From a virus: a DNA stretch of 40,883 nt. The stretch's first letter is position 1; each line of letters opens with the position of its first letter. The notes under the pieces are model-generated. The model was not told the origin of the DNA. It worked only from the letters and a program-made list of their open reading frames with translations, and ran no database searches. The position numbers and the translations under genes were made by a program. Of this stretch, positions 15,758-27,527 are shown in pieces. The stretch is taken from UHGV virus genome UHGV-0848487. One strand, written 5' to 3'.

Positions 15758-15905
15758 ACCTCACACCTCTTTCAATCAAGGATTGCACACCAGCTTTCCA
15801 CGCCCGCCACGCGAGACGCGTCTTAACGTTCAGGTACTCTTTCTTTGAACCCTTGTTAACCGGCAGACCCTCGACCACAGCCCACCGTTCAAATGCTTCT
15901 CTCAT
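15750..15905 (-). CDS. hypothetical protein (51 aa)
   Basis: ATG 15903-15905 overlapping upstream stop (ATGA); under track cutoff. Confidence 0.3.
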   Translation of the reverse strand: MREAFERWAVVEGLPVNKGSKKEYLNVKTRLAWRAWKAGVQSLIERGVRYG

Positions 15906-16090
15906 ACCAGAACCTCACATTCATCCCGATACGCGAACAATAACGACCCTTTGTACTCAATCATAAAACCATAATGGTTGATGCTGAACGCCGGAAAAAC
16001 ATCACCTACCGAGATACCGAAATCTATAAGCCTGCGGTCAGTTATACGGACAAGCCTGCGGTCAGTTATACGGATTCGCATTAACGGCAA
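15902..16090 (-). CDS. hypothetical protein (62 aa) containing a 24-bp in-frame tandem duplication
   Basis: ORF track; peptide RITDRRLV duplicated. Confidence 0.4.
   Translation of the reverse strand: MPLMRIRITDRRLVRITDRRLIDFGISVGDVFPAFSINHYGFMIEYKGSLLFAYRDECEVLV
16028..16075. repeat. 24-bp tandem direct duplication (2 copies, 23/24 identical)
   Basis: aagcctgcggtcagttatacgga repeated head-to-tail. Confidence 0.9.
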
Positions 16091-16472: not shown

Positions 16473-16506
16473 AACCCTCACTCCTCTGTCTCGTTCCGAT
16501 AAGTGA

Positions 16507-16535
16507 ATAGTATCCTATTATGTTGGGGCGTGCAA
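16507..16535 (-). promoter_or_regulatory. sigma70-like promoter TTGCAC-N17-TACTAT (minus strand) overlapping GAATAG palindrome
   Basis: Minus strand TTGCACgccccaacataataggaTACTATtcactta, about 25 nt upstream of the 16472 gene. Confidence 0.5.
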
Positions 16536-16594
16536 GAGATTAGTTACGTTGCCGTTGTGATTCTTTCGTTTCTTAAAGGAGTACGCAACGCAGT

Positions 16595-16614
16595 GGGTGG
16601 GCGTTAGCCCACCC
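16595..16614. promoter_or_regulatory. GC-rich 8-bp hairpin GGGTGGGC-gtta-GCCCACCC in early intergenic region
   Basis: Perfect stem, no U-tract on either strand. Confidence 0.3.
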
Positions 16615-16779
16615 CAGCGGAGTGAAGTACTCTCTACCTCACTCACGGCAACTATAGAAACTTTTAATTATCAGTGACTTATGAAGGAGGGTAAAATTTA
16701 AATAGACGGGGGCTTTCTTGCCACTTGCTGTTACTGGGATGAAACTTAGATACTAACGTTACCAAGAGTACTGTTTAGC

Positions 16780-16802
16780 GCCCCGCTTTAGGGCGGGGCT
16801 TT
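16780..16802 (+). terminator. hairpin GCCCCGC-loop-GCGGGGC followed by TTTA
   Basis: Near-identical to the element at 5353..5372 but in opposite orientation. Confidence 0.35.
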
Positions 16803-16956
16803 AAGTACCCGAGACTTAAGAATGATGTTTCTAAGTAATTCTGAATTAAGGTCCTTCGATACATTGATTTTACAGCTACATTTTATTTTGTCAATAGGTT
16901 GTGTTTGGCTATTGTAGGTGTTATAGTTGTTTCACTTGATAAAGAGGGCACGTAAA

Positions 16957-17136
16957 ATGACACAGAAAGAAGTAGCAGACTTAATCGGAGTTTCTCCTAT
17001 GACGCTTAATCGCTGGCTGCGGTCGGGTAAGTTCCCTGAGTGTTGCCGGGTTATTAACGGCTACCGTCAGCCGGGTACGTTTGACCGCGCTACTGTGGAG
17101 GCGTGGATTAAGGAGAACGTAAAAGATGCTAACTAA
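16957..17136 (+). CDS. AlpA-like HTH transcriptional regulator
   Basis: Preferred ATG 16957 after AGAGGG; sequence EVADLIGVSPMTLNRWLRSGKFPE ... TVEAWIKEN matches AlpA/excisionase-like family pattern. Confidence 0.65.
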   Translation: MTQKEVADLIGVSPMTLNRWLRSGKFPECCRVINGYRQPGTFDRATVEAWIKENVKDAN

Positions 17137-17401
17137 ATTCCAGAAACATATATTAATGTGTGCACGCAGACTGACCGAAGCGAACGGCGCTTTTACGGTA
17201 GACGGGCTTCGGAGATACCGGTTGGATAATTACGGTGTAAACCCGATTAAACATGCTTTAGATGTGCTCGAGCGACATGGTGAGATTCTTAATAAAGGAA
17301 AGTTTTATCGGGCAACAAGAGCAACGCCGATTACAGAGAAAGCGAGAAGTATTGGAAAAGTGTTGGTCCCCGAGGGTAATATCTCCCGCGACCTGGAATA
17401 A
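17126..17401 (+). CDS. hypothetical protein (91 aa)
   Basis: ORF track; start overlaps AlpA-like stop. Confidence 0.45.
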   Translation: MLTKFQKHILMCARRLTEANGAFTVDGLRRYRLDNYGVNPIKHALDVLERHGEILNKGKFYRATRATPITEKARSIGKVLVPEGNISRDLE

Positions 17402-17459: not shown

Positions 17460-19745
17460 ATGTCCGATGTAATTTTATCCTACTCGTGGTCCCGTCGCAA
17501 CGCGCGGGCGGAGAAAAAGGATATAAACGTCAGAACCACACATACGGCAACACTGGATGACCTGAAAGAGTTAATTCAGCCGCTTGATGCTGTTCGTGAC
17601 GGGATTAACCCTAAGACCGCGCCAGGTTATATCACTGCCGCGTGCGATTCTATACACAGCACCGTAAAAGACCCGGAAACAGGTGACTTTAAGCAGGCCC
17701 GTAAAGGCTTCTTTTATCGCTGTGACGCGTCTGTAAGCAAATCGTCGCTGGCGTATCTGGACTTCGACAGCGCAACGCCGGAAGAGTACCAGGAAGCGGT
17801 GCGCCTGGTTAAACGCAGCCGCCTGGCTATGTGCCTCTACACCACGGCATCCCATACCGATGGGTCACCGCGCTTTCGCGTCGTCATGCCGCTGGGCCGC
17901 CCGGTAGAAGGCGGTGACATCATCCGTGTTCGTCATGGATTGCTGGAGCACTTCTTCAAAGGTATGGGTGCGGACCGCAGCGGGTTCACTCTGTCTCAGC
18001 CGATGTACCTGCCGCCGGTTGGCTCTACTGTTATCTGGTCGCGCCGCAACGACCTGATTGACCCGGACGAGTTACTGGAAGGCATCCCCGCCGTTGACGT
18101 TAGCAGCGCATCGGATTACCAGATACCGAAAGAACTGCGAACAGCGTTTACCGATGCGTTTGAAGCACTGGCGTTCGAGTACGGCGGTATTATGACCCCG
18201 CGCGGCCTTAAGATGCCCGCTACGCCGGAACACGCCGAGAACTACAGCGACCCGACACCGCGCCCGGATGACTTCCTGCTGTGCTTCCCGCGCGAGGGAT
18301 ATGAAGCGCCTAACGTAACCATGATTCACGACACCGACATTACGGCGACCGAGGGCATGTCACCGAAAGAGGTGTGGAAGTATGCGTGCGATGCAACCGG
18401 GCTGCCGTTCAGTGAAGTCGCAGAGGCCATCGGTTGGGGTGCACGTGAATCTGTTTCTTGCAGCCTGGACGACCTTGAAGACGACGAGGACTCAGAGGAG
18501 GACGAGTTACCGGAACCGGTAAAGGCTGATTTCGTCGTTGAAGGGTACATGCCGTCGGATTGCATATGGGATATCGTCGGGGAGTCCGGTACGTATAAAT
18601 CCTTCTATACGCTGGGGATGATGTACCTGAGCGCCACCGGATACCGGTTTGCGGGTGCTGACACCCAGCGTTGCCACCATTTCTATATCGACGGTGAAGG
18701 CGGCGCAGCTACCCGCACCCGTATCGATGCGCTCGCGGCTAAATATGGCGAGGAAGGTAAAGATTATGTACATGTTATAGACATGGGTGAAATACTCGGT
18801 ATGCGAGAGGATAAAAAACTTACAGCACTCATCCGTATGATGCGTGAAACAGCAGGAGAGGAACCGATCGGTATGATTGCGTTCGATACCCTCAACCAGA
18901 CGCTGGCCCTGACGATTGATAAGTTTGATGAGAACAGTTCATCAACTGCAATCGGCATGGGTAAAGTCATCGCTATCCTTAAAAAAGCGCGTGACGCGAC
19001 TAAAGCTGCGGTAGGCGTTGTACACCATACACCGAAGGGCGGAAAGAAAGCCCGAGGTAGTGGTGCGCTGTACGCTGGCGTCGATGTGGAGCTGACAATC
19101 GAACGCGCGACAGACCGTCAGATAAATGTATACCACTCTAAATTTAAGCATGGGCCGCAACAGAAGACGGTTGGTATGGTGCTTGAGTCGGTACAGTTCC
19201 GCGAAGCCCCGCCACCGAAAGAATACCGCGCGGTTGAGTTCCTCGGTAGCACAGAGGAATACGGCACAACCGTTAACCTCGACCTGCCTGAGCCGCACAA
19301 AGCGCTTGTGCTTATGCCGTGGGGCTTCGAACCGTTCAAGACCGACGAGGAGAAAGAGCGGGAAGAAGGACTGACTAAGGAAGGTAAAGAAAACGTACGT
19401 AGGACCATGGAGAACGCCGTCAACAGTTCGGAAGCCACGATACTGGCGGCGTTTGAACTGGCGGAAGGAACCTACAACGGCAACGAAGGTATCACGGTAG
19501 CCGCGGCAAATAAGCTCGCACAGTCTGACCCCAACGCGAAGGCGTTCAACTCCAAAGAAGTCATAGAACGCGGAAAGATTAAGAAAATGGTTGAGGCGGG
19601 GTATCTTGTACCTGGTACGGACGAAAACAATCAGATAATCCCGGGCCGTTACAGATTGAATACCCGAATAACGGACAACAAGATTCCGAAGACAATATAC
19701 GAACCGAATGAAATGCTGACAGTGACAGAGGAGGATTTGGAATAG
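17460..19745 (+). CDS. replication protein: primase-like N-terminal region fused to RecA-like/AAA ATPase (helicase-type) domain
   Basis: 761 aa; LAYLDFD acidic motif in N-terminal half; deviant Walker A GESGTYKS, Walker B-like IGMIAFDTLNQ, HHTPKGG motif in C-terminal half. Confidence 0.55.
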   Translation: MSDVILSYSWSRRNARAEKKDINVRTTHTATLDDLKELIQPLDAVRDGINPKTAPGYITAACDSIHSTVKDPETGDFKQARKGFFYRCDASVSKSSLAYLDFDSATPEEYQEAVRLVKRSRLAMCLYTTASHTDGSPRFRVVMPLGRPVEGGDIIRVRHGLLEHFFKGMGADRSGFTLSQPMYLPPVGSTVIWSRRNDLIDPDELLEGIPAVDVSSASDYQIPKELRTAFTDAFEALAFEYGGIMTPRGLKMPATPEHAENYSDPTPRPDDFLLCFPREGYEAPNVTMIHDTDITATEGMSPKEVWKYACDATGLPFSEVAEAIGWGARESVSCSLDDLEDDEDSEEDELPEPVKADFVVEGYMPSDCIWDIVGESGTYKSFYTLGMMYLSATGYRFAGADTQRCHHFYIDGEGGAATRTRIDALAAKYGEEGKDYVHVIDMGEILGMREDKKLTALIRMMRETAGEEPIGMIAFDTLNQTLALTIDKFDENSSSTAIGMGKVIAILKKARDATKAAVGVVHHTPKGGKKARGSGALYAGVDVELTIERATDRQINVYHSKFKHGPQQKTVGMVLESVQFREAPPPKEYRAVEFLGSTEEYGTTVNLDLPEPHKALVLMPWGFEPFKTDEEKEREEGLTKEGKENVRRTMENAVNSSEATILAAFELAEGTYNGNEGITVAAANKLAQSDPNAKAFNSKEVIERGKIKKMVEAGYLVPGTDENNQIIPGRYRLNTRITDNKIPKTIYEPNEMLTVTEEDLE

Positions 19746-19754
19746 GTAAAAATA

Positions 19755-19773
19755 AAGGGGCGTTAAGCCCCTT
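19755..19773 (-). terminator. hairpin AAGGGGC-gttaa-GCCCCTT, U-tract on minus strand
   Basis: Stop codon of the XRE-like gene lies in the loop; located 10 nt after the replication gene stop on the plus strand. Confidence 0.5.
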
Positions 19774-19978
19774 CACCCAACGCCAGCCACTTGGCATCTA
19801 CTTGCAGCACTTCCGCCAGTTTAAACAGCGTCGCTGGGCGGACGTCCTGAGTTACCCCAAGTGCCAGCTGGTTAATCGCGCCTTGGGAAACACCGGCCAG
19901 GACAGCCAGATGGCGCTGGGAGATACCGAGTTCTTTACGGCGTTGCTCTACACGGATACCTAGTTCAGATGGTTGCAT
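19763..19978 (-). CDS. XRE-family (Cro/CI-type) HTH transcriptional regulator
   Basis: 71 aa; LGISQRHLAVLAGVSQGAINQL helix-turn-helix; AAGGAG RBS; antisense to the replication module. Confidence 0.8.
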   Translation of the reverse strand: MQPSELGIRVEQRRKELGISQRHLAVLAGVSQGAINQLALGVTQDVRPATLFKLAEVLQVDAKWLALGEGA

Positions 19979-19998: not shown

Positions 19999-20027
19999 TT
20001 GATATGTGAATAGTACCATATTAATTA
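19999..20027 (+). promoter_or_regulatory. candidate promoter TTGATA-N17-TAATTA overlapping the divergent XRE promoter (-10 TACTAT on minus strand at 20010..20015)
   Basis: Contains GTGAATAGTA operator-like motif; face-to-face overlapping promoters. Confidence 0.4.
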
Positions 20028-20042
20028 TTTTAGAAAAGCCCA

Positions 20043-20071
20043 TTGACAAGTGAATAGTTCGCTATTATAGT
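20043..20071 (+). promoter_or_regulatory. strong sigma70-like promoter TTGACA-N17-TATAGT
   Basis: Consensus -35, 17-nt spacer containing GTGAATAGTtcgCTATTA palindrome, -10 TATAGT; 30 nt upstream of the 20103 gene. Confidence 0.6.
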
Positions 20072-20928: not shown

Positions 20929-21182
20929 ATTGGGTTAGTGTAAACGAAGCATTGCCGGAGTCAAAAGATGATTCTGTTTTAGTTTGCTCAGTAGATGGTG
21001 GTAAATATGACGATAACGGGTTCCCGGAAGGTGGGATCGATTTTGTACATATACAGGACTATTTCGACGACATTACGGCTGGGCTGGATGAGAACGGAAA
21101 TCAGCTATATACGAAACGGTATATCGAGATGGGCATAACTCACTGGATGTATTTACCGGAACTGCCGGAGGGCACTAAATGA
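20925..21182 (+). CDS. DUF551-like protein
   Basis: Preferred ATG 20925 (MNWVSV) overlapping upstream stop; C-terminal ITHWMYLPELPEG. Confidence 0.5.
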   Translation: MNWVSVNEALPESKDDSVLVCSVDGGKYDDNGFPEGGIDFVHIQDYFDDITAGLDENGNQLYTKRYIEMGITHWMYLPELPEGTK

Positions 21183-22432
21183 TGATCCTAAAAGAGCGCG
21201 GCGGCAATAACGATGTACACGCCTTACTATCACCGTCAGGCGCTAAAAAGTGGCTAACCTGCCCGGCTTCTCTGGCCTGTGAAAAAGATATTCCTAACAC
21301 GTCCGGTAAAGCCGCGGTATTAGGCACAGCTATGCACACCATAGCCGAGATGCATCTTAACCAGTACATCAAAGGTGCTGCGCTGCCGTTAGAGCGTGAA
21401 GTCGGCGCTTACGTGCTGGATGAAGGTAAAGGCCAGATTAAGGCGCTAATCAGCCCAATGAAAGGCGCGGTACTGGTTACGGCGGACATGATTGAGCAGG
21501 TGCGCAAGTACACCGACTACTGCAAAGCGATTATCGACGTAGCGACTTACGACAAGCTGGAAATGCGAGTCAATCTTACTGAGGTATTGCATCCTGGGTA
21601 TGAAGGTGTCGAGACGTTCGGAACGGCTGACCTCGTTGCTGTCCAGGAACTGGCGAACACCGACGAGCACATGCTCATTATTGGCGACCTTAAAACTGGA
21701 CGGCATCGTGTTGAAGCGAAAGAAAACAAGCAGCTTATGCTTTACGCTCTCGGTGTTTATCGCCGACTCAAGAGACGTTATAACATCACAGTAGTGCGCC
21801 TGGTCATCTTCCAGCCGTACGCGGGGGGTGCGTCAGAGTGGGACATCTCGGTCGAAGGTCTGGAACTGTTCGCTAAGTTCGCACAGAAACGGGCACTGTT
21901 AGCGCTTGATGCTTATTTCCGTGGAAAGAAGAACCTGAAAGCGTCGGACTTTAAACCGTCGGTCGATGGTTGCCAGTGGTGCCGGTTCTCTGAACAGTGT
22001 GCCGCGCGTACAAAGACGGTTAATTCTGTACTGGCGGAAGAACTTGAAGACGACTTTGTGCTGGAACTGACGACGGAGCAACTCGTAGTTGAGTATGAGA
22101 AGTTGCCGCTGTTACGCCAGCACATCGACAAGGTTGAGAAAGCGATGTCCGCCGCATTGCATTCCGGTAAGAAAGTTCCTGGGTACAAGCTGGTTGAAGG
22201 TAAGATGGGCAACCGTGCGTGGAAAGATGCCGATGCGATTGAAGTGTCACACGGCGACATTCTCAAAAAAGAGGTATTGATGACCCCTACGGAGGCAGCA
22301 AAAGTTCTTTCGGCGGATGAGATGGCAGCGCTTGAGCCGTTTATTACCCGTAAGCCGGGCGCACCATGTGTCGCAACGGCAGACGACAAACGTCCTGAGT
22401 GGAATCAGGTTAGTGAAGAAGATTTGGAATAA
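21179..22432 (+). CDS. PD-(D/E)XK exonuclease, Cas4/RecB-like with Cys cluster
   Basis: GTADLVAV ... IIGDLKTG nuclease motifs; C-terminal CQWCRFSEQC; 417 aa. Confidence 0.6.
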   Translation: MMILKERGGNNDVHALLSPSGAKKWLTCPASLACEKDIPNTSGKAAVLGTAMHTIAEMHLNQYIKGAALPLEREVGAYVLDEGKGQIKALISPMKGAVLVTADMIEQVRKYTDYCKAIIDVATYDKLEMRVNLTEVLHPGYEGVETFGTADLVAVQELANTDEHMLIIGDLKTGRHRVEAKENKQLMLYALGVYRRLKRRYNITVVRLVIFQPYAGGASEWDISVEGLELFAKFAQKRALLALDAYFRGKKNLKASDFKPSVDGCQWCRFSEQCAARTKTVNSVLAEELEDDFVLELTTEQLVVEYEKLPLLRQHIDKVEKAMSAALHSGKKVPGYKLVEGKMGNRAWKDADAIEVSHGDILKKEVLMTPTEAAKVLSADEMAALEPFITRKPGAPCVATADDKRPEWNQVSEEDLE

Positions 22433-22518: not shown

Positions 22519-23145
22519 ATGGGTATTAAACTGAATCTGCGTAAAGTAAACACTGCATGGGTTAACGTATTCGAACGCGAAAAAGACCGTGAAAACGATG
22601 ATGGCTCAATCACTAAAGGCCAGTACAGCGCGACTATCATCCTGCCGTCTGACCACGCACAAATCGACGCGCTCTACGACACCGTTTACGCTGTGGTTGA
22701 AGAAGCGTTGGGCGCAGCTGCCGCTGAGAAGTGGATGAAGTCCAACTACGGCGAAGGTAAGCACATGGATAAATGTGCGATTAAAGACATTGCCGAGCGC
22801 GACAATCCGTTTGAAGACTTCCCGGAAGGCTTCTACTTCAAGGCGAAGGCACAGAAACAGCCACTGATTGTAACCTCTAAAAAAGGCGAGACTCAGGTAG
22901 AACAGGACTTCAATGTAGACGGCGAACAGATTGAAGGTGAACAGGTTTACAGCGGCTGCGTCGCTAACGTAAGCGTTGAAATCTGGTTCAGTCAGAAATA
23001 TAAAGTCCTCGGCGTTAACCTGCTGGCGATTAAATACATTGGCGAAGGCAAAGCGTTTGGCGGTTCTAAAGTCGCTGCCAGCGTAAATGACCTGGAAGAC
23101 GACGAAGAAGATGAAGCACCGCGCCGCGAGCGTCGTCGTCGCTAA
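22519..23145 (+). CDS. ssDNA-binding protein-like (T7 gp2.5-type, putative)
   Basis: 208 aa with acidic C-terminal tail DLEDDEEDEA; position immediately upstream of DNA polymerase. Confidence 0.4.
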   Translation: MGIKLNLRKVNTAWVNVFEREKDRENDDGSITKGQYSATIILPSDHAQIDALYDTVYAVVEEALGAAAAEKWMKSNYGEGKHMDKCAIKDIAERDNPFEDFPEGFYFKAKAQKQPLIVTSKKGETQVEQDFNVDGEQIEGEQVYSGCVANVSVEIWFSQKYKVLGVNLLAIKYIGEGKAFGGSKVAASVNDLEDDEEDEAPRRERRRR

Positions 23146-23204: not shown

Positions 23205-25385
23205 ATGAGTTACCTGTTCTTAGACTTTGAAACATTCTCCGAAGCCGATTTGAAGAAAGTCGGCTCCTACGCTTACGCCGAACATCCAACCACCGAAGTT
23301 CTAATCTGCACATATGCTTTTGACGACGAGCCTGTGCAGGTATGGGATTGCACCAACGGCAGCGACATACCGGGCGATTTGCACCGCGCGTTACGCCGTC
23401 TGGTGAAACCAAACAGCCGTATTAAGATGGTGTGGCACAACGGCTCAATGTTCGACAGGCCCATCATGAAGCACTGCTGGGGTTTTGATATTCCCGTAAG
23501 CAACACCATTGATACGATGATTTGGGCGTTTCGTCACGCGCTGCCGGGTTCACTCGACGCATTGTGCGAAGTGCTTGGCGTGTCTGCAGACAACGCGAAA
23601 GACAAACGAGGCAAAGCGCTTATTCAGCGTTTCTCTAAACCGACGCCGAAGAACTACAAAATTCGCCGCTACACTGCTGAAACGCACCCGGATGAGTGGG
23701 CGCTGTTCATCAAGTACGCCGTTAGCGACATCACCGCGATGCGTGAAGTGTTCCATAAGTTGCCGCGTTGGGGTAACTCCGAGTTCGAAGACCGTGTACT
23801 GGAACTGGACCAGTTAATTAACGACCGCGGGTTTAAGGTCGACGTTGCGCTGGCGGAAGCCGCAATTGAAGCTGTGGAGAAACACAAGGCACAGTTACAG
23901 GAAGAAGCCCAACGTAAATACGGCGGCTCGCTTACAGGTAAGGACTTCCTGCCGATTCTGCGTGAACTGGCGCCTGCGCATCGCATCCACAACGCGCAGA
24001 AGTCTACGCTTAACGACCTGCTTGCTGACGATGATTTACCGGACGACGCCCGCACGATTATAGAAATGCGCCTCGGGGCGGCATCCACTGCGTCAACGAA
24101 ATATAACCCGCTGCTGTTAGGCCGCTCGTCTGACGACCGCCGTCGCGGTTGCATCCAGTATGGTGGAGCTAAACGTACGTTACGATTTGCGGGTAAAGGC
24201 TTCCAGCCGCAGAACCTGGCGCGTGGGTACTATCACGATGATGAACTGGATAAAGGTATTTCAGCATTACTTAAGGGCCGAGCACATCGCCGTTTTGATG
24301 TAGCCAAGCTAACGGCATCTACGGTTCGCAGCTGCATTATCCCGGAAGCCGGACATAAGTTTGTCGTCGCCGACTACTCGAACGTTGAAGGCCGCGGTTT
24401 GGCGTGGCTGGCTGGCGAAGAAACCGCGCTTGATACGTTCCGTGCCGGGCTGGATATTTACTGCGTAACCGCAGGCAAGATGTTCGGCATGGAGCCGGAT
24501 TACATTAAGAAAGAACGTAAAGACTTACGCCAGATTGGTAAGGCATGCGAACTTGGACTTGGCTACGCGGGTGGTGTCGGCGCATTCGTACAGTTCGCCA
24601 AGAACCTCAGCCTTGACCTTGTTGATATGGCAAAAACAATGGACGGGACTTTCCCCGACCACATCTGGGCTGCTACCGCACGTGGATATGAGTGGGCGCG
24701 TATTCAGGAAGCCAAGCGACCACCACGTCCAGGTGAAAATGATGACCGACCATCTTATATTCTTGATAAGAAAGTGTGGCGTACCTGCGACGCTATCAAG
24801 CGTATGTGGCGTGAGTCACACCCGGAAACAGTAGCTTTCTGGCGGGATATTGAAGACGCAGCTATGGCAGCTATCCGCAATCCGGGCAAAGAGTTCACCG
24901 CAGGGCCGCGGGGAGTTAAGTTTTCGCGCAACGTAGAAACGGACAACAACGGCAACAAAGTCGCCGGTTGGTGGTTGCGGATGACGTTGCCGTCGGGCCG
25001 CGTTATGTCTTATCCGGGCGTCGGGTTGAGCGTGTCGAAAGAGACAGACGAAGATGGAAAGGTGTCCACTAACGTCCGCATCAAATACCAGGGGGAGAAC
25101 CAGTTAACCCGTCAGTGGGGCTTCCAGTACACCTACTCTGGTAAACTGGTGGAAAACTGCACTCAGGCTCTGTGCCGTGATTTGCTGGCTAATGCGCTGC
25201 TGAACGTAGAGGCAAACGGCTACCCGATTGTTCTTCACGTACACGATGAGATTATCTGCGAGACACCAGATTTACCGGAATACAATGTAGATGAACTGGA
25301 GAAATTAATGTGTGCGTTGCCTGAGTGGGCAGAAGGCTTCCCTCTTGTAGCAGAAGGTGCGGAGATGAAGCGTTATGCCAAGTAA
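23205..25385 (+). CDS. DNA polymerase, family A with 3'-5' exonuclease domain
   Basis: Exo I motif LFLDFETFS; motif A ADYSNVEGR; motif B RQIGKACELGLGYAGG; motif C HVHDEII. Confidence 0.85.
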   Translation: MSYLFLDFETFSEADLKKVGSYAYAEHPTTEVLICTYAFDDEPVQVWDCTNGSDIPGDLHRALRRLVKPNSRIKMVWHNGSMFDRPIMKHCWGFDIPVSNTIDTMIWAFRHALPGSLDALCEVLGVSADNAKDKRGKALIQRFSKPTPKNYKIRRYTAETHPDEWALFIKYAVSDITAMREVFHKLPRWGNSEFEDRVLELDQLINDRGFKVDVALAEAAIEAVEKHKAQLQEEAQRKYGGSLTGKDFLPILRELAPAHRIHNAQKSTLNDLLADDDLPDDARTIIEMRLGAASTASTKYNPLLLGRSSDDRRRGCIQYGGAKRTLRFAGKGFQPQNLARGYYHDDELDKGISALLKGRAHRRFDVAKLTASTVRSCIIPEAGHKFVVADYSNVEGRGLAWLAGEETALDTFRAGLDIYCVTAGKMFGMEPDYIKKERKDLRQIGKACELGLGYAGGVGAFVQFAKNLSLDLVDMAKTMDGTFPDHIWAATARGYEWARIQEAKRPPRPGENDDRPSYILDKKVWRTCDAIKRMWRESHPETVAFWRDIEDAAMAAIRNPGKEFTAGPRGVKFSRNVETDNNGNKVAGWWLRMTLPSGRVMSYPGVGLSVSKETDEDGKVSTNVRIKYQGENQLTRQWGFQYTYSGKLVENCTQALCRDLLANALLNVEANGYPIVLHVHDEIICETPDLPEYNVDELEKLMCALPEWAEGFPLVAEGAEMKRYAK

Positions 25386-25905: not shown

Positions 25906-26100
25906 ATGAGACACGAATATGACCGCAAACCAGCACGTGACATCGTACCGGGTGACATGATTTTCAACGTTAAGACACGTCAACCTGTTGCCGTTGATAC
26001 GGTGTTCGTCGAGTCGAACGGTAAACTGGTTATCGAAGATGTAACGGGTAACGTTACGGCGTTCGGGCGTAAAGAGCTGGTACTCTACATTAAGGGTTGA
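25906..26100 (+). CDS. hypothetical protein (64 aa)
   Basis: ORF track; RBS AAGGAA. Confidence 0.45.
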   Translation: MRHEYDRKPARDIVPGDMIFNVKTRQPVAVDTVFVESNGKLVIEDVTGNVTAFGRKELVLYIKG

Positions 26101-26102
26101 TT

Positions 26103-27527
26103 ATGTCTAAATTTATCCGTCGAGAGTACCAAAAGCTCATGACTTCATTCATGCTGCGGCATCCGCGCTGTAATATTTGGGCTTCGATGGGCGCGGGCAA
26201 AAGTTCCGCAACGATGTGGGTGCTTAACCGACTGTTCCGCAACGGCCAACTTAATGATGATGACCGCGTGTTAATCCTCGCCCCTTTACGTGTTGCGTCC
26301 GGTACGTGGCCATCAGAACAAACTAAGTGGGGATTCCCGTGTCTGCGCGTCGTAGATGCGACCGGTTCAGAGAAGCGCCGCATCGCGGCGCTGGAGTCAG
26401 ATGCTAACGTGGTGTGCACTAACTACGAAGTTATCGAATGGCTGATTGACTACTACGGCAAAGACGACTGGCCTTTTACCGTTATCGTCGCCGACGAAAG
26501 CACGAAGCTGAAATCATTCCGCAGCCGTTCAGGTGGAAGCAAGAGGGCGAAGGCGCTAAGTAAAGTTGCGTTCGGTAAGGTTAAGCGTTTCATTAACCTG
26601 ACTGGTACGCCGTCGCCGAACGGCCTCAAGGACTTATGGGGCCAGAACTGGTTTATCGACGCGGGTGAGCGCCTCGGTTCTTCATACACAGCATTCACCG
26701 ACCGCTGGTTTAACTCGGTACAGAAAGGCAAGTCAGCTATGGCGCGTGAGTACCATGCGCGCCCGGGCGCAGATAACGAGATTCACCAGAAGATGAAAGA
26801 CATTAGTCTCACGATTGACGCCGCCGAGTGGTTTGGATGTGAAGCGCCGATTATTGTACCAGTGGAAATTGACCTGCCGAAGAAAGCACGTCAGGCGTAC
26901 ATCGATATGGAGGAAAAGTTATTCGCGGAACTGGAGAGCGGGGAAGTTGAAGCGGCTAACGCCGCGGCGAAGACCTCAAAATGCTTGCAGCTTGCATCTG
27001 GTGCCGTATATGTGACGGGCGAAGACGGGGAAGCAACGAAAGACTGGGAGAAAGTGCACGACACGAAACTGGATGCGCTGGAGTCAATTGTTGAGGAGCT
27101 ACAAGGTGCGCCGTTGCTTGTGGCTTATCAGTTTAAGCATGAACTGGAGCGCATCCTTAAGCGATTCCCGCAGGCGCAGGCGTTCGCCAAAGGTGCGAAG
27201 GGTAATAAGCAGATGGAAGCGTGGAACCGTGGCGAAATCGAAATCTTATGCGTGCACCCGGCGTCAGCCGGGCATGGTTTGAATTTACAGGACGGCGGGC
27301 ATCATCTGGCGTTTATTTCGCAAGGCTGGAATCTTGAGCACTATTTGCAGGTTGTCGAGCGTATAGGCCCGGTCCGCCAGAAACAGGCTGGCCACGAGCG
27401 CCCGGTGTTCCTTTATCACATAGTCGCTAAAGACACTCTTGACGAGGTTGTTGCCGCGCGTACAGACGAGAAGAAATCGGTCCAGGAAGAATTGCTTAAT
27501 TATATGAAGAGAAGAGGTAAGAAATGA
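26103..27527 (+). CDS. SNF2-family DNA helicase
   Basis: GAGKS Walker A, VIVADESTKLK motif II, NLTGTPSPNGLKDLW motif III; preferred ATG 26103. Confidence 0.7.
   Translation: MSKFIRREYQKLMTSFMLRHPRCNIWASMGAGKSSATMWVLNRLFRNGQLNDDDRVLILAPLRVASGTWPSEQTKWGFPCLRVVDATGSEKRRIAALESDANVVCTNYEVIEWLIDYYGKDDWPFTVIVADESTKLKSFRSRSGGSKRAKALSKVAFGKVKRFINLTGTPSPNGLKDLWGQNWFIDAGERLGSSYTAFTDRWFNSVQKGKSAMAREYHARPGADNEIHQKMKDISLTIDAAEWFGCEAPIIVPVEIDLPKKARQAYIDMEEKLFAELESGEVEAANAAAKTSKCLQLASGAVYVTGEDGEATKDWEKVHDTKLDALESIVEELQGAPLLVAYQFKHELERILKRFPQAQAFAKGAKGNKQMEAWNRGEIEILCVHPASAGHGLNLQDGGHHLAFISQGWNLEHYLQVVERIGPVRQKQAGHERPVFLYHIVAKDTLDEVVAARTDEKKSVQEELLNYMKRRGKK

Follow-up and report, generated by a model that had tools for sequence, protein, structure and literature searches.

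Which protein primes and unwinds the DNA of a phage whose annotated and domain-scanned proteins include no DnaG-type primase and no replicative helicase beyond the product of one large open reading frame (ORF)? The question is raised by the UHGV virus genome UHGV-0848487, a stretch of 40,883 nucleotides (the window) that represents a nearly complete Kagunavirus genome (Guernseyvirinae; K1G/K1ind-like E. coli siphophage). The ORF runs from an ATG at position 17460 to 19745, stop codon included, on the plus strand, to which all coordinates below refer unless stated otherwise, and encodes a protein of 761 amino acids (aa). A reading made from the letters alone, here called the sequence-only reading, had seen in it a single large replication protein that joins primase-like and RecA-like ATPase regions and carries the motifs LAYLDFD, GESGTYKS and HHTPKGG. 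All three motifs are present, starting at aa 97, 374 and 522, and the gene is conserved; an archaeo-eukaryotic primase (AEP) fold was modelled for the N-terminal region, and the central part was recognized as a RecA-fold ATPase by Pfam and by a Protein Data Bank (PDB) profile search. We consider it very probable that the gene product is the bifunctional replicative primase-helicase of the phage, a single chain that unites an AEP primase with a ring-helicase motor and a probable DNA-binding domain.

The assignment of the whole gene draws on the ORF list, on PHROG 3228 and on the annotation of the K1ind2 orthologue. PHROG 3228 ('replicative helicase-primase') aligns with aa 1-761 over profile positions 1-766 of 766 (E = 4e-285). 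Across the primase-helicase region, K1ind2 and K1ind3 share 93.5% nucleotide identity with the window, and their GenBank/RefSeq records label the orthologous gene 'putative helicase-primase' or 'replicative helicase-primase'; among such Guernseyvirinae orthologues, K1ind2 gp38 (YP_009597369) lies in the same synteny, matches PHROG 3228 over its full length and shows no substantive difference from the window protein. A cluster of 535 proteins is 98% identical to it, and tblastn at a protein coverage of at least 80% found matches in 384 phage records, where the label varies between helicase-primase, replicative DNA helicase, primase and hypothetical. The gene is thus an ordinary, previously annotated member of a widespread phage family, and its architecture class is known too. 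With the annotation public for Guernseyvirinae for years, the value of our analysis is mainly confirmatory; it provides structural and motif support for the 'primase' half of that annotation, which is without Pfam or NCBIfam backing.

Modular architecture of the primase-helicase

Is there a primase in the N-terminal part of the protein? The AEP (archaeo-eukaryotic primase / PrimPol-type) catalytic domain was placed at aa 1-215 (17460..18104). An AlphaFold2 model of the N-terminal region, computed from a 34-sequence alignment, reached a mean predicted local distance difference test score (pLDDT) of 88, with values >95 over aa 90-210, and displays an AEP catalytic fold; its top structural match is the AEP domain of S-2L PrimPol, and RepB' is also a good fold match. 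The sequence-only reading had named the lack of a primase or polymerase fold in structure prediction as the result that should overturn it, and such a fold was predicted.

The order and spacing of D101-x-D103, S131-H132 and D172 agree with those of AEP motifs I, II and III. The DFD of LAYLDFD (D101-F-D103; 17760..17768), predicted to supply the metal-binding aspartates, follows the motif I pattern hhhDhD and closes strand E92-102, and both aspartates are invariant in 19 family members as well as in 34 diverged homologs. The sxH pattern of motif II is found in S131-H132 (17850..17855), the end of a TTASH sequence (T128-T-A-S-H132) that is invariant in both N-terminal types of the family and reads YTTxSHT in the consensus of distant homologs. 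These two types, A and B, are ~23% identical and share, besides TTASH, the invariant D101, D103, R140, D172 and Y183/P185. As a candidate for motif III, D172 (17973..17975) is proposed from order and spacing; it is invariant in the family alignment and the majority residue in distant homologs (consensus DxxSxxxSQxMYLP). Taken together, the 34 diverged sequences yield the consensus LDxD...YTTxSHTxxxPRFR...DxxSxxxSQxMYLP, with R87, D101, D103 and R140 invariant. Membership in the PrimPol-PV1 supergroup, which is defined by an arginine (motif IV, 'Rh') located downstream of motif III (PMC5862659), is not established, because the invariant arginines are R87 and R140 and the alignment of 34 diverged sequences contains none downstream of D172.

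When 1.8 billion representatives were scanned exhaustively with HMMER, 109 N-terminal relatives emerged at E <= 1e-3, mostly over aa 85-210; a word-indexed search of proteins, started from the N-terminal alignment, yielded six near-identical fragments only. In the relatives, the AEP core precedes PriCT_2, PriCT_1, D5_N + DUF5906, VapE, DUF3987, NrS-1 HBD, AAA_25 or, in some distant cases, DnaB_C, domains that are the usual company of archaeo-eukaryotic primases. Pfam detected neither Toprim nor Zn_Ribbon_Prim in the primase-helicase, and hence no primase of the DnaG/TOPRIM type. Two PDB searches gave matches that we judged spurious: an N-terminal profile of 34 sequences retrieved a designed Kelch-like protein (a repeat match) and chorismate mutase, and the whole protein matched a fibre protein alone. 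NCBIfam holds no model for the protein.

The primase domain is followed by a module of three short strands and subsequent helices at aa 225-330 (18132..18449), which model secondary structure and homolog sequences suggest to be zinc-ribbon-like with a helical part. Putative metal ligands lie at aa ~246-293 (18195-18340), where type B proteins read CPNEH...CQHTNNGAC, other homologs CPFExEH and the window protein PATPEH...C275. In the latter the loop bearing the last Cys is deleted, and two of the four putative ligands are gone in comparison with type B; the module is probably a degenerate zinc ribbon that has lost two ligands. An acidic flexible linker (SCSLDDLEDDEDSEEDELPEPVK; aa 333-355; 18456..18524), with a pLDDT of ~50 and a length that differs among homologs, then leads to the motor.

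The motor is a predicted RepA-like superfamily 4 (SF4; DnaB-superfamily) helicase core at aa 356-625 (18525..19334). Pfam AAA_25 (PF13481) covers aa 352-528 (E = 1e-19) with 71.4 bits against a cut-off of 27. When a profile of the ATPase core built from five sequences was searched against all PDB sequences, the hexameric helicase RSF1010 RepA (1G8Y) was the best match (E = 4.7e-20), followed by Rad51/RadA (1e-7 to 1e-5), the T7 gp4 helicase (1e-4) and then Twinkle. Alignment with RepA pairs the Walker A motif with 'GGAGKS', 'YIDGEGG' with 'YLPAEDP', 'IAFDTLNQ' with 'MVLDTLRR', 'VHHTPKGG' with 'LHHASKGA' and 'ARGSGAL' with 'SRGSSVL', and thereby recovers a catalytic Glu (E413), the Walker B Asp, an HHxxK sensor and an RGS arginine finger. 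Walker B is I473-A-F-D476 (18876..18887; RepA 'LMVLD'). The sensor motif H522-HTPKGG and arginine finger R532 together occupy 19023..19055 (RepA 'LHHASKGA...RGSS'), and HHTPKGG is, as aligned, a RepA-type sensor motif. No variation is seen among 125 homologs at K380, S381, E413, D476, H522, H523 or R532, and very little at K526.

Walker A itself (G374-ESGTYK-S381; 18579..18602) is deviant, as the sequence-only reading had noticed: it departs from the canonical GxxxxGK[ST] in that Tyr379 replaces the last Gly, with Lys and Ser kept. The exact sequence GESGTYKS occurs in 116 of the 125 aligned homologs, and an aromatic residue is retained at this position in the diverged homologs P0125 (TGSFKT) and P0173 (YGGYKS); RP180, mckay and VLCpiS11a have a canonical G-K-S P-loop. 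Because the aromatic residue is conserved together with the whole catalytic set, the tyrosine P-loop would seem adapted rather than dead, and it appears to be under purifying selection. Met364 was considered as the start of a helicase-only isoform, as in T7 gp4B, and discarded as too near Walker A to leave a complete fold.

Neither DnaB_C nor the DnaB N-terminal domain matched the primase-helicase in Pfam at E <= 1, which leaves it outside the DnaB family proper. RepA/AAA_25 nevertheless belongs to the DnaB-like SF4 helicases, and for this reason the earlier description of a compact replisome 'without a DnaB-type helicase' is right about compactness (genes for a family A polymerase, a protein binding single-stranded DNA (SSB), a nuclease and an SNF2 helicase are present) but misleading about the helicase. 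Judged by its sequence, the window protein itself is the DnaB-superfamily replicative helicase of the phage and not a stand-in for one.

The proportions given in the sequence-only reading were roughly right, with ~355 rather than 400 aa preceding the ATPase core and ~135 rather than 200 aa following it, because the ATPase fold reaches to about aa 625. The C-terminal extension (aa 626-761) is thus present, and the part called unknown in function divides into a charged linker, a domain that is probably a winged helix, and a tail that is acidic and conserved. For the probable winged-helix DNA-binding domain (aa 655-739; 19422..19676), the AlphaFold2 model has the layout helix-strand-helix-helix-strand-strand with a pLDDT of ~80 over aa 660-739, and the top Foldseek matches are all winged helices (H1/H5 linker histone globular domain, Fur, MarR/SlyA and ORC). 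A Pfam match to MIS13 (aa 598-700, E = 0.029) lies below threshold and was dismissed as a low-complexity artefact of the charged linker. The tail, YEPNEMLTVTEEDLE (aa 747-761; 19698..19742), ends in EEDLE and is singled out by its near-invariance.

A possible replisome and its alternatives

How might such a protein act at the fork? A T7-like replisome is most likely, because the SSB, family A polymerase, nuclease and SNF2 helicase genes lie in the same module as the primase-helicase. We envision that the helicase cores form a hexameric ring around the lagging-strand template, moving 5'->3' on ATP or another nucleoside triphosphate (NTP), as RSF1010 RepA and T7 gp4 would suggest, and that six AEP domains, tethered by the flexible acidic linker, make primers on the single strand extruded by the ring. 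These primers would be elongated by the family A polymerase of the phage, and the gp2.5-type SSB would cover the displaced strand. For the winged helix, the most likely role is to bind duplex DNA and to place or load the ring at an origin, possibly the AT-rich divergent-promoter region just upstream of the gene, and the C-terminal ...[ST][DE][EG]DL tail most likely docks onto a common partner (polymerase or SSB), like the acidic tails of T7 gp4 and gp2.5.

As in T7 gp4, one chain has its primase, together with a zinc-ribbon-type module, at the N terminus, continues through a flexible linker into a ring helicase of the SF4 RecA-fold class and ends in an acidic tail; in both replisomes this chain stands alongside a polymerase of family A and an SSB of the gp2.5 type. 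The window primase is of the AEP rather than the DnaG/TOPRIM type, however, its zinc-ribbon-like module lacks two ligands where that of gp4 is Cys4, its helicase belongs to the RepA/AAA_25 rather than the gp4/DnaB_C branch, it has an extra winged helix, and its tail ends in DLE rather than in an aromatic residue. A like modular architecture is known from pRN1 ORF904, the NrS-1 PrimPol-helicase and corynephage BFK20 gp43. It also recalls the replicases of mobile elements, in which an AEP is followed by a PriCT/Zn-binding domain, a helicase (RepA, DnaB, MCM, VirE, DUF927 or DUF3987) and a winged helix (Kazlauskas et al. 2018, PMC5862659), and with which the window protein and its relatives share the swapping of helicase modules behind the primase. 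In RSF1010 (IncQ), the RepB' primase, the RepA helicase and the origin binder RepC are separate proteins, whereas here, in a lytic phage, the three corresponding modules are fused. Motif II has His in the window protein where RepB'-like enzymes have Gln (PMC5862659), and the RepC-like role of the winged helix is assigned by inference only, no iterons having been found near the gene.

Several points weigh against the picture of a replicative primase-helicase. No Pfam or NCBIfam model matches aa 1-345 of the window protein or of any homolog examined, and an N-terminal profile of 4 sequences found no match in the PDB and thus no solved AEP; the equivalence of the AEP catalytic residues therefore rests on motif order and fold. 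Hexamer formation, polarity, primer chemistry (NTP or deoxynucleoside triphosphate, dNTP), origin binding and the partner of the tail are all elements that we infer from analogous systems. A tyrosine in place of the near-universal Walker A glycine could impair nucleotide binding. The Foldseek matches to winged helices are weak, with no E below 0.056 and no probability above 0.97 (overall model pLDDT 69), and the search for iterons or origin repeats near the gene gave short two-copy matches, a 23-nt tandem and a duplicated promoter-like element, none of them convincing. The searchable literature on Guernseyvirinae helicase-primases yielded genome descriptions and no biochemical study.

Might the AEP domain instead be a true primase-polymerase like those of pRN1 ORF904, NrS-1 PrimPol and PolpTN2, making DNA primers or long products from dNTPs at a specific origin and serving chiefly as an origin-specific initiator or replicase rather than as an RNA primase at the fork? 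The closest structural match, the AEP domain of S-2L PrimPol, would be in keeping with this, as would the 'NrS-1 polymerase-like' proteins among its BFVD relatives and the C-terminal winged helix, which suggests sequence-specific DNA binding; related AEPs of mobile elements have both primase and polymerase activity (PMC5862659). Yet bulk synthesis by the AEP would be unnecessary, because the phage itself encodes a family A polymerase that includes a proofreading domain, and fusion to a ring helicase through a flexible linker is the classic layout of a fork primase. We regard this alternative as unlikely, though it is the one that we take most seriously.

Less probable still, by a good measure, is that the substitution in Walker A, at a place where Gly almost always stands, has crippled the ATPase and reduced it to a scaffold for oligomerization or loading, with unwinding left to host DnaB or to the SNF2 protein encoded nearby. 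SNF2 proteins are translocases on double-stranded DNA and not replicative fork helicases. Invariance of Lys380, Ser381, Glu413, Asp476, His522/523 and Arg532 in the 125 homologs speaks against loss of activity; no part of the protein is better conserved than the core, whose identity among Kagunaviruses is 95-100%, and a dead enzyme would not be expected to show such a pattern; the Tyr or Phe held in diverged members suggests an adapted rather than a decayed P-loop, and sister phages carry a module with a canonical P-loop at the same position. We find it scarcely credible that the protein serves in recombination or repair instead of replication, with a strand-exchange ATPase of the RadA/Rad51 kind joined to a PrimPol for repriming. 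Rad51 and RadA do form the second tier of PDB matches (E = 1e-7 to 1e-5), and a PD-(D/E)XK nuclease and an annealing-type SSB are encoded in the same module; but RepA beats Rad51 by 12 orders of magnitude, both the sensor (HHxxK) and the arginine finger (RGS) are of the RepA type, the genome is without another primase or replicative helicase, and all close homologs lie in replication modules.

The conserved tail and module exchange

What might the tail connect? Three window proteins end in DLE: the primase-helicase (...TEEDLE), a 91-aa protein encoded just upstream (17126..17401; ...SRDLE at 17381-17398), which belongs to PHROG 5169, a family of unknown function, and a DUF2800 / PD-(D/E)XK nuclease (21179..22432; ...SEEDLE at 22412-22429; Pfam DUF2800 E = 1e-67). 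No other C-terminal tripeptide recurs three times among the window proteins, and simulation gave P ~0.002 for any C-terminal tripeptide to be shared by three among 60 proteins. The three also end in DLE in K1ind2 and in a Jersey-like phage of Salmonella, where the orthologue of the 91-aa protein ends in ...PEDLE. In the more distant Klebsiella phage VLCpiS11a, the tails of helicase-primase (...SDEDLNS) and nuclease (...SDEDLS) have changed together, so that [ST][DE][EG]DL, at or near the C terminus, is shared by and co-varies between primase-helicase and DUF2800 nuclease. Other helicase-primases end in ...TDDDLKD (Dhillonvirus mckay), in ...DEDDLSDD (P0125) or, in RP180, identically to the window protein, and exchange of the N-terminal, ATPase and C-terminal modules leaves the tail almost unchanged.

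We tentatively propose, as an idea with rather less than an even chance of being correct, that [ST]-[DE]-[EG]-D-L is a common docking peptide by which the primase-helicase, together with the nuclease (DUF2800) and the 91-aa upstream protein, attaches to one replisome hub (the polymerase of family A or the SSB of the gp2.5 type being the likeliest), and that the tail, not the enzymatic modules, serves as the fixed interface permitting the N-terminal, ATPase and C-terminal modules to be swapped freely. The candidate motif is modelled on the acidic tails of T7 gp4 and gp2.5. Because it co-varies between helicase-primase and nuclease, the motif makes a candidate for replisome assembly that lends itself to direct test in a large group of phages considered for therapy. 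Together with module swapping, the shared C-terminal motif is the sole part of this analysis that might repay further work; these by-products, and the tyrosine P-loop with them, are of modest, specialist interest.

Exchange of modules is apparent on comparing the window protein with P0043, P0068, RP180 and mckay (L005 895-3159), a set that includes at least two ATPase types ~31% identical to each other. Among Kagunavirus homologs, ATPase cores that are 95-100% identical stand behind N-terminal domains of type A or of type B, and the C-terminal domain exists in at least three types with the tail constant; domain types are thus combined differently within one genus. The window protein unites a type-A N-terminal domain with the Tyr-Walker-A ATPase, whereas other Kagunaviruses have type B, a canonical-P-loop ATPase or both. 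RP180 (L006 4963-7224), for instance, carries a type-B N terminus, a different RepA-like ATPase (~31% identical, with a canonical P-loop) and the same tail. The G+C of the type-A primase segment (17700-18400), 0.57-0.61, exceeds that of the remaining gene and that of the genome (~0.51). The family offers an unusually clean natural case of primase, motor and DNA-binding modules being swapped around a constant C-terminal peptide. In P0037 (468 aa) and in P0038 (456 aa; 'replicative DNA helicase' of Escherichia phage CR01), the gene is called as a truncated or split ORF that breaks inside the ATPase core, which probably reflects a frameshift or sequencing error rather than a genuine two-protein version.

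The replication module and its control region

The primase-helicase gene sits in a rightward replication module. It is preceded by the gene for the 91-aa protein and by that for a helix-turn-helix (HTH) protein (16927-17136), and is followed by a leftward Cro/CI-type HTH gene (19763-19978) and, before the DUF2800 nuclease, by genes for proteins without assigned function. Further downstream lie a gene for an SSB of the T7 gp2.5 (Enc34 ORF6) type (22519..23145; Pfam Enc34_ssDNA-bd; PHROG 112 'Gp2.5-like'), the Enc34 ORF6-type SSB being structurally of the T7 gp2.5 type (PMC5686142), one for a family A DNA polymerase of 726 aa with a 3'-5' exonuclease domain (23205..25385; Pfam DNA_pol_A, DNA_pol_A_exo1) and one for an SNF2-family helicase/translocase (26097..27527; Pfam SNF2-rel_dom, Helicase_C; PHROG 62). 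The last two were the neighbours named by the sequence-only reading, and Pfam recovered both. In the Salmonella Jersey-like phage, the family A polymerase (L002 13489-16587) has 1032 aa as against 726 in the window, and the SNF2 gene (L002 17181-18187) has Hom_end_hint / LAGLIDADG matches, which indicates that the two genes of that phage hold intein or homing-endonuclease insertions without counterpart in the window phage.

Upstream of the module, 16481-16927 comprises ~450 bp of non-coding DNA with the lowest G+C of the window (0.34 at 16800-16999) and with divergent near-consensus promoters, of which the minus-strand one (16894-16867) matches at 11 of 12 positions. This segment represents the early control region and possibly an origin. 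A sign change of GC skew at ~16.5 kb was set aside as origin evidence, because transcription reverses direction at the same place. Two copies of a 23-nt sequence, AAGCCTGCGGTCAGTTATACGGA, form a perfect tandem direct repeat with 24-nt spacing at 16028-16074, within a small minus-strand ORF (15902-16090) upstream of the module. Between the Cro/CI-type HTH gene and the next rightward gene, a duplicated 25-nt element (19999-20071) consists of copies that are 80% identical and 44 nt apart, the second of which contains a near-consensus sigma-70 promoter (TTGACA-17-TATAGT); the two copies are probably tandem promoters or operators.

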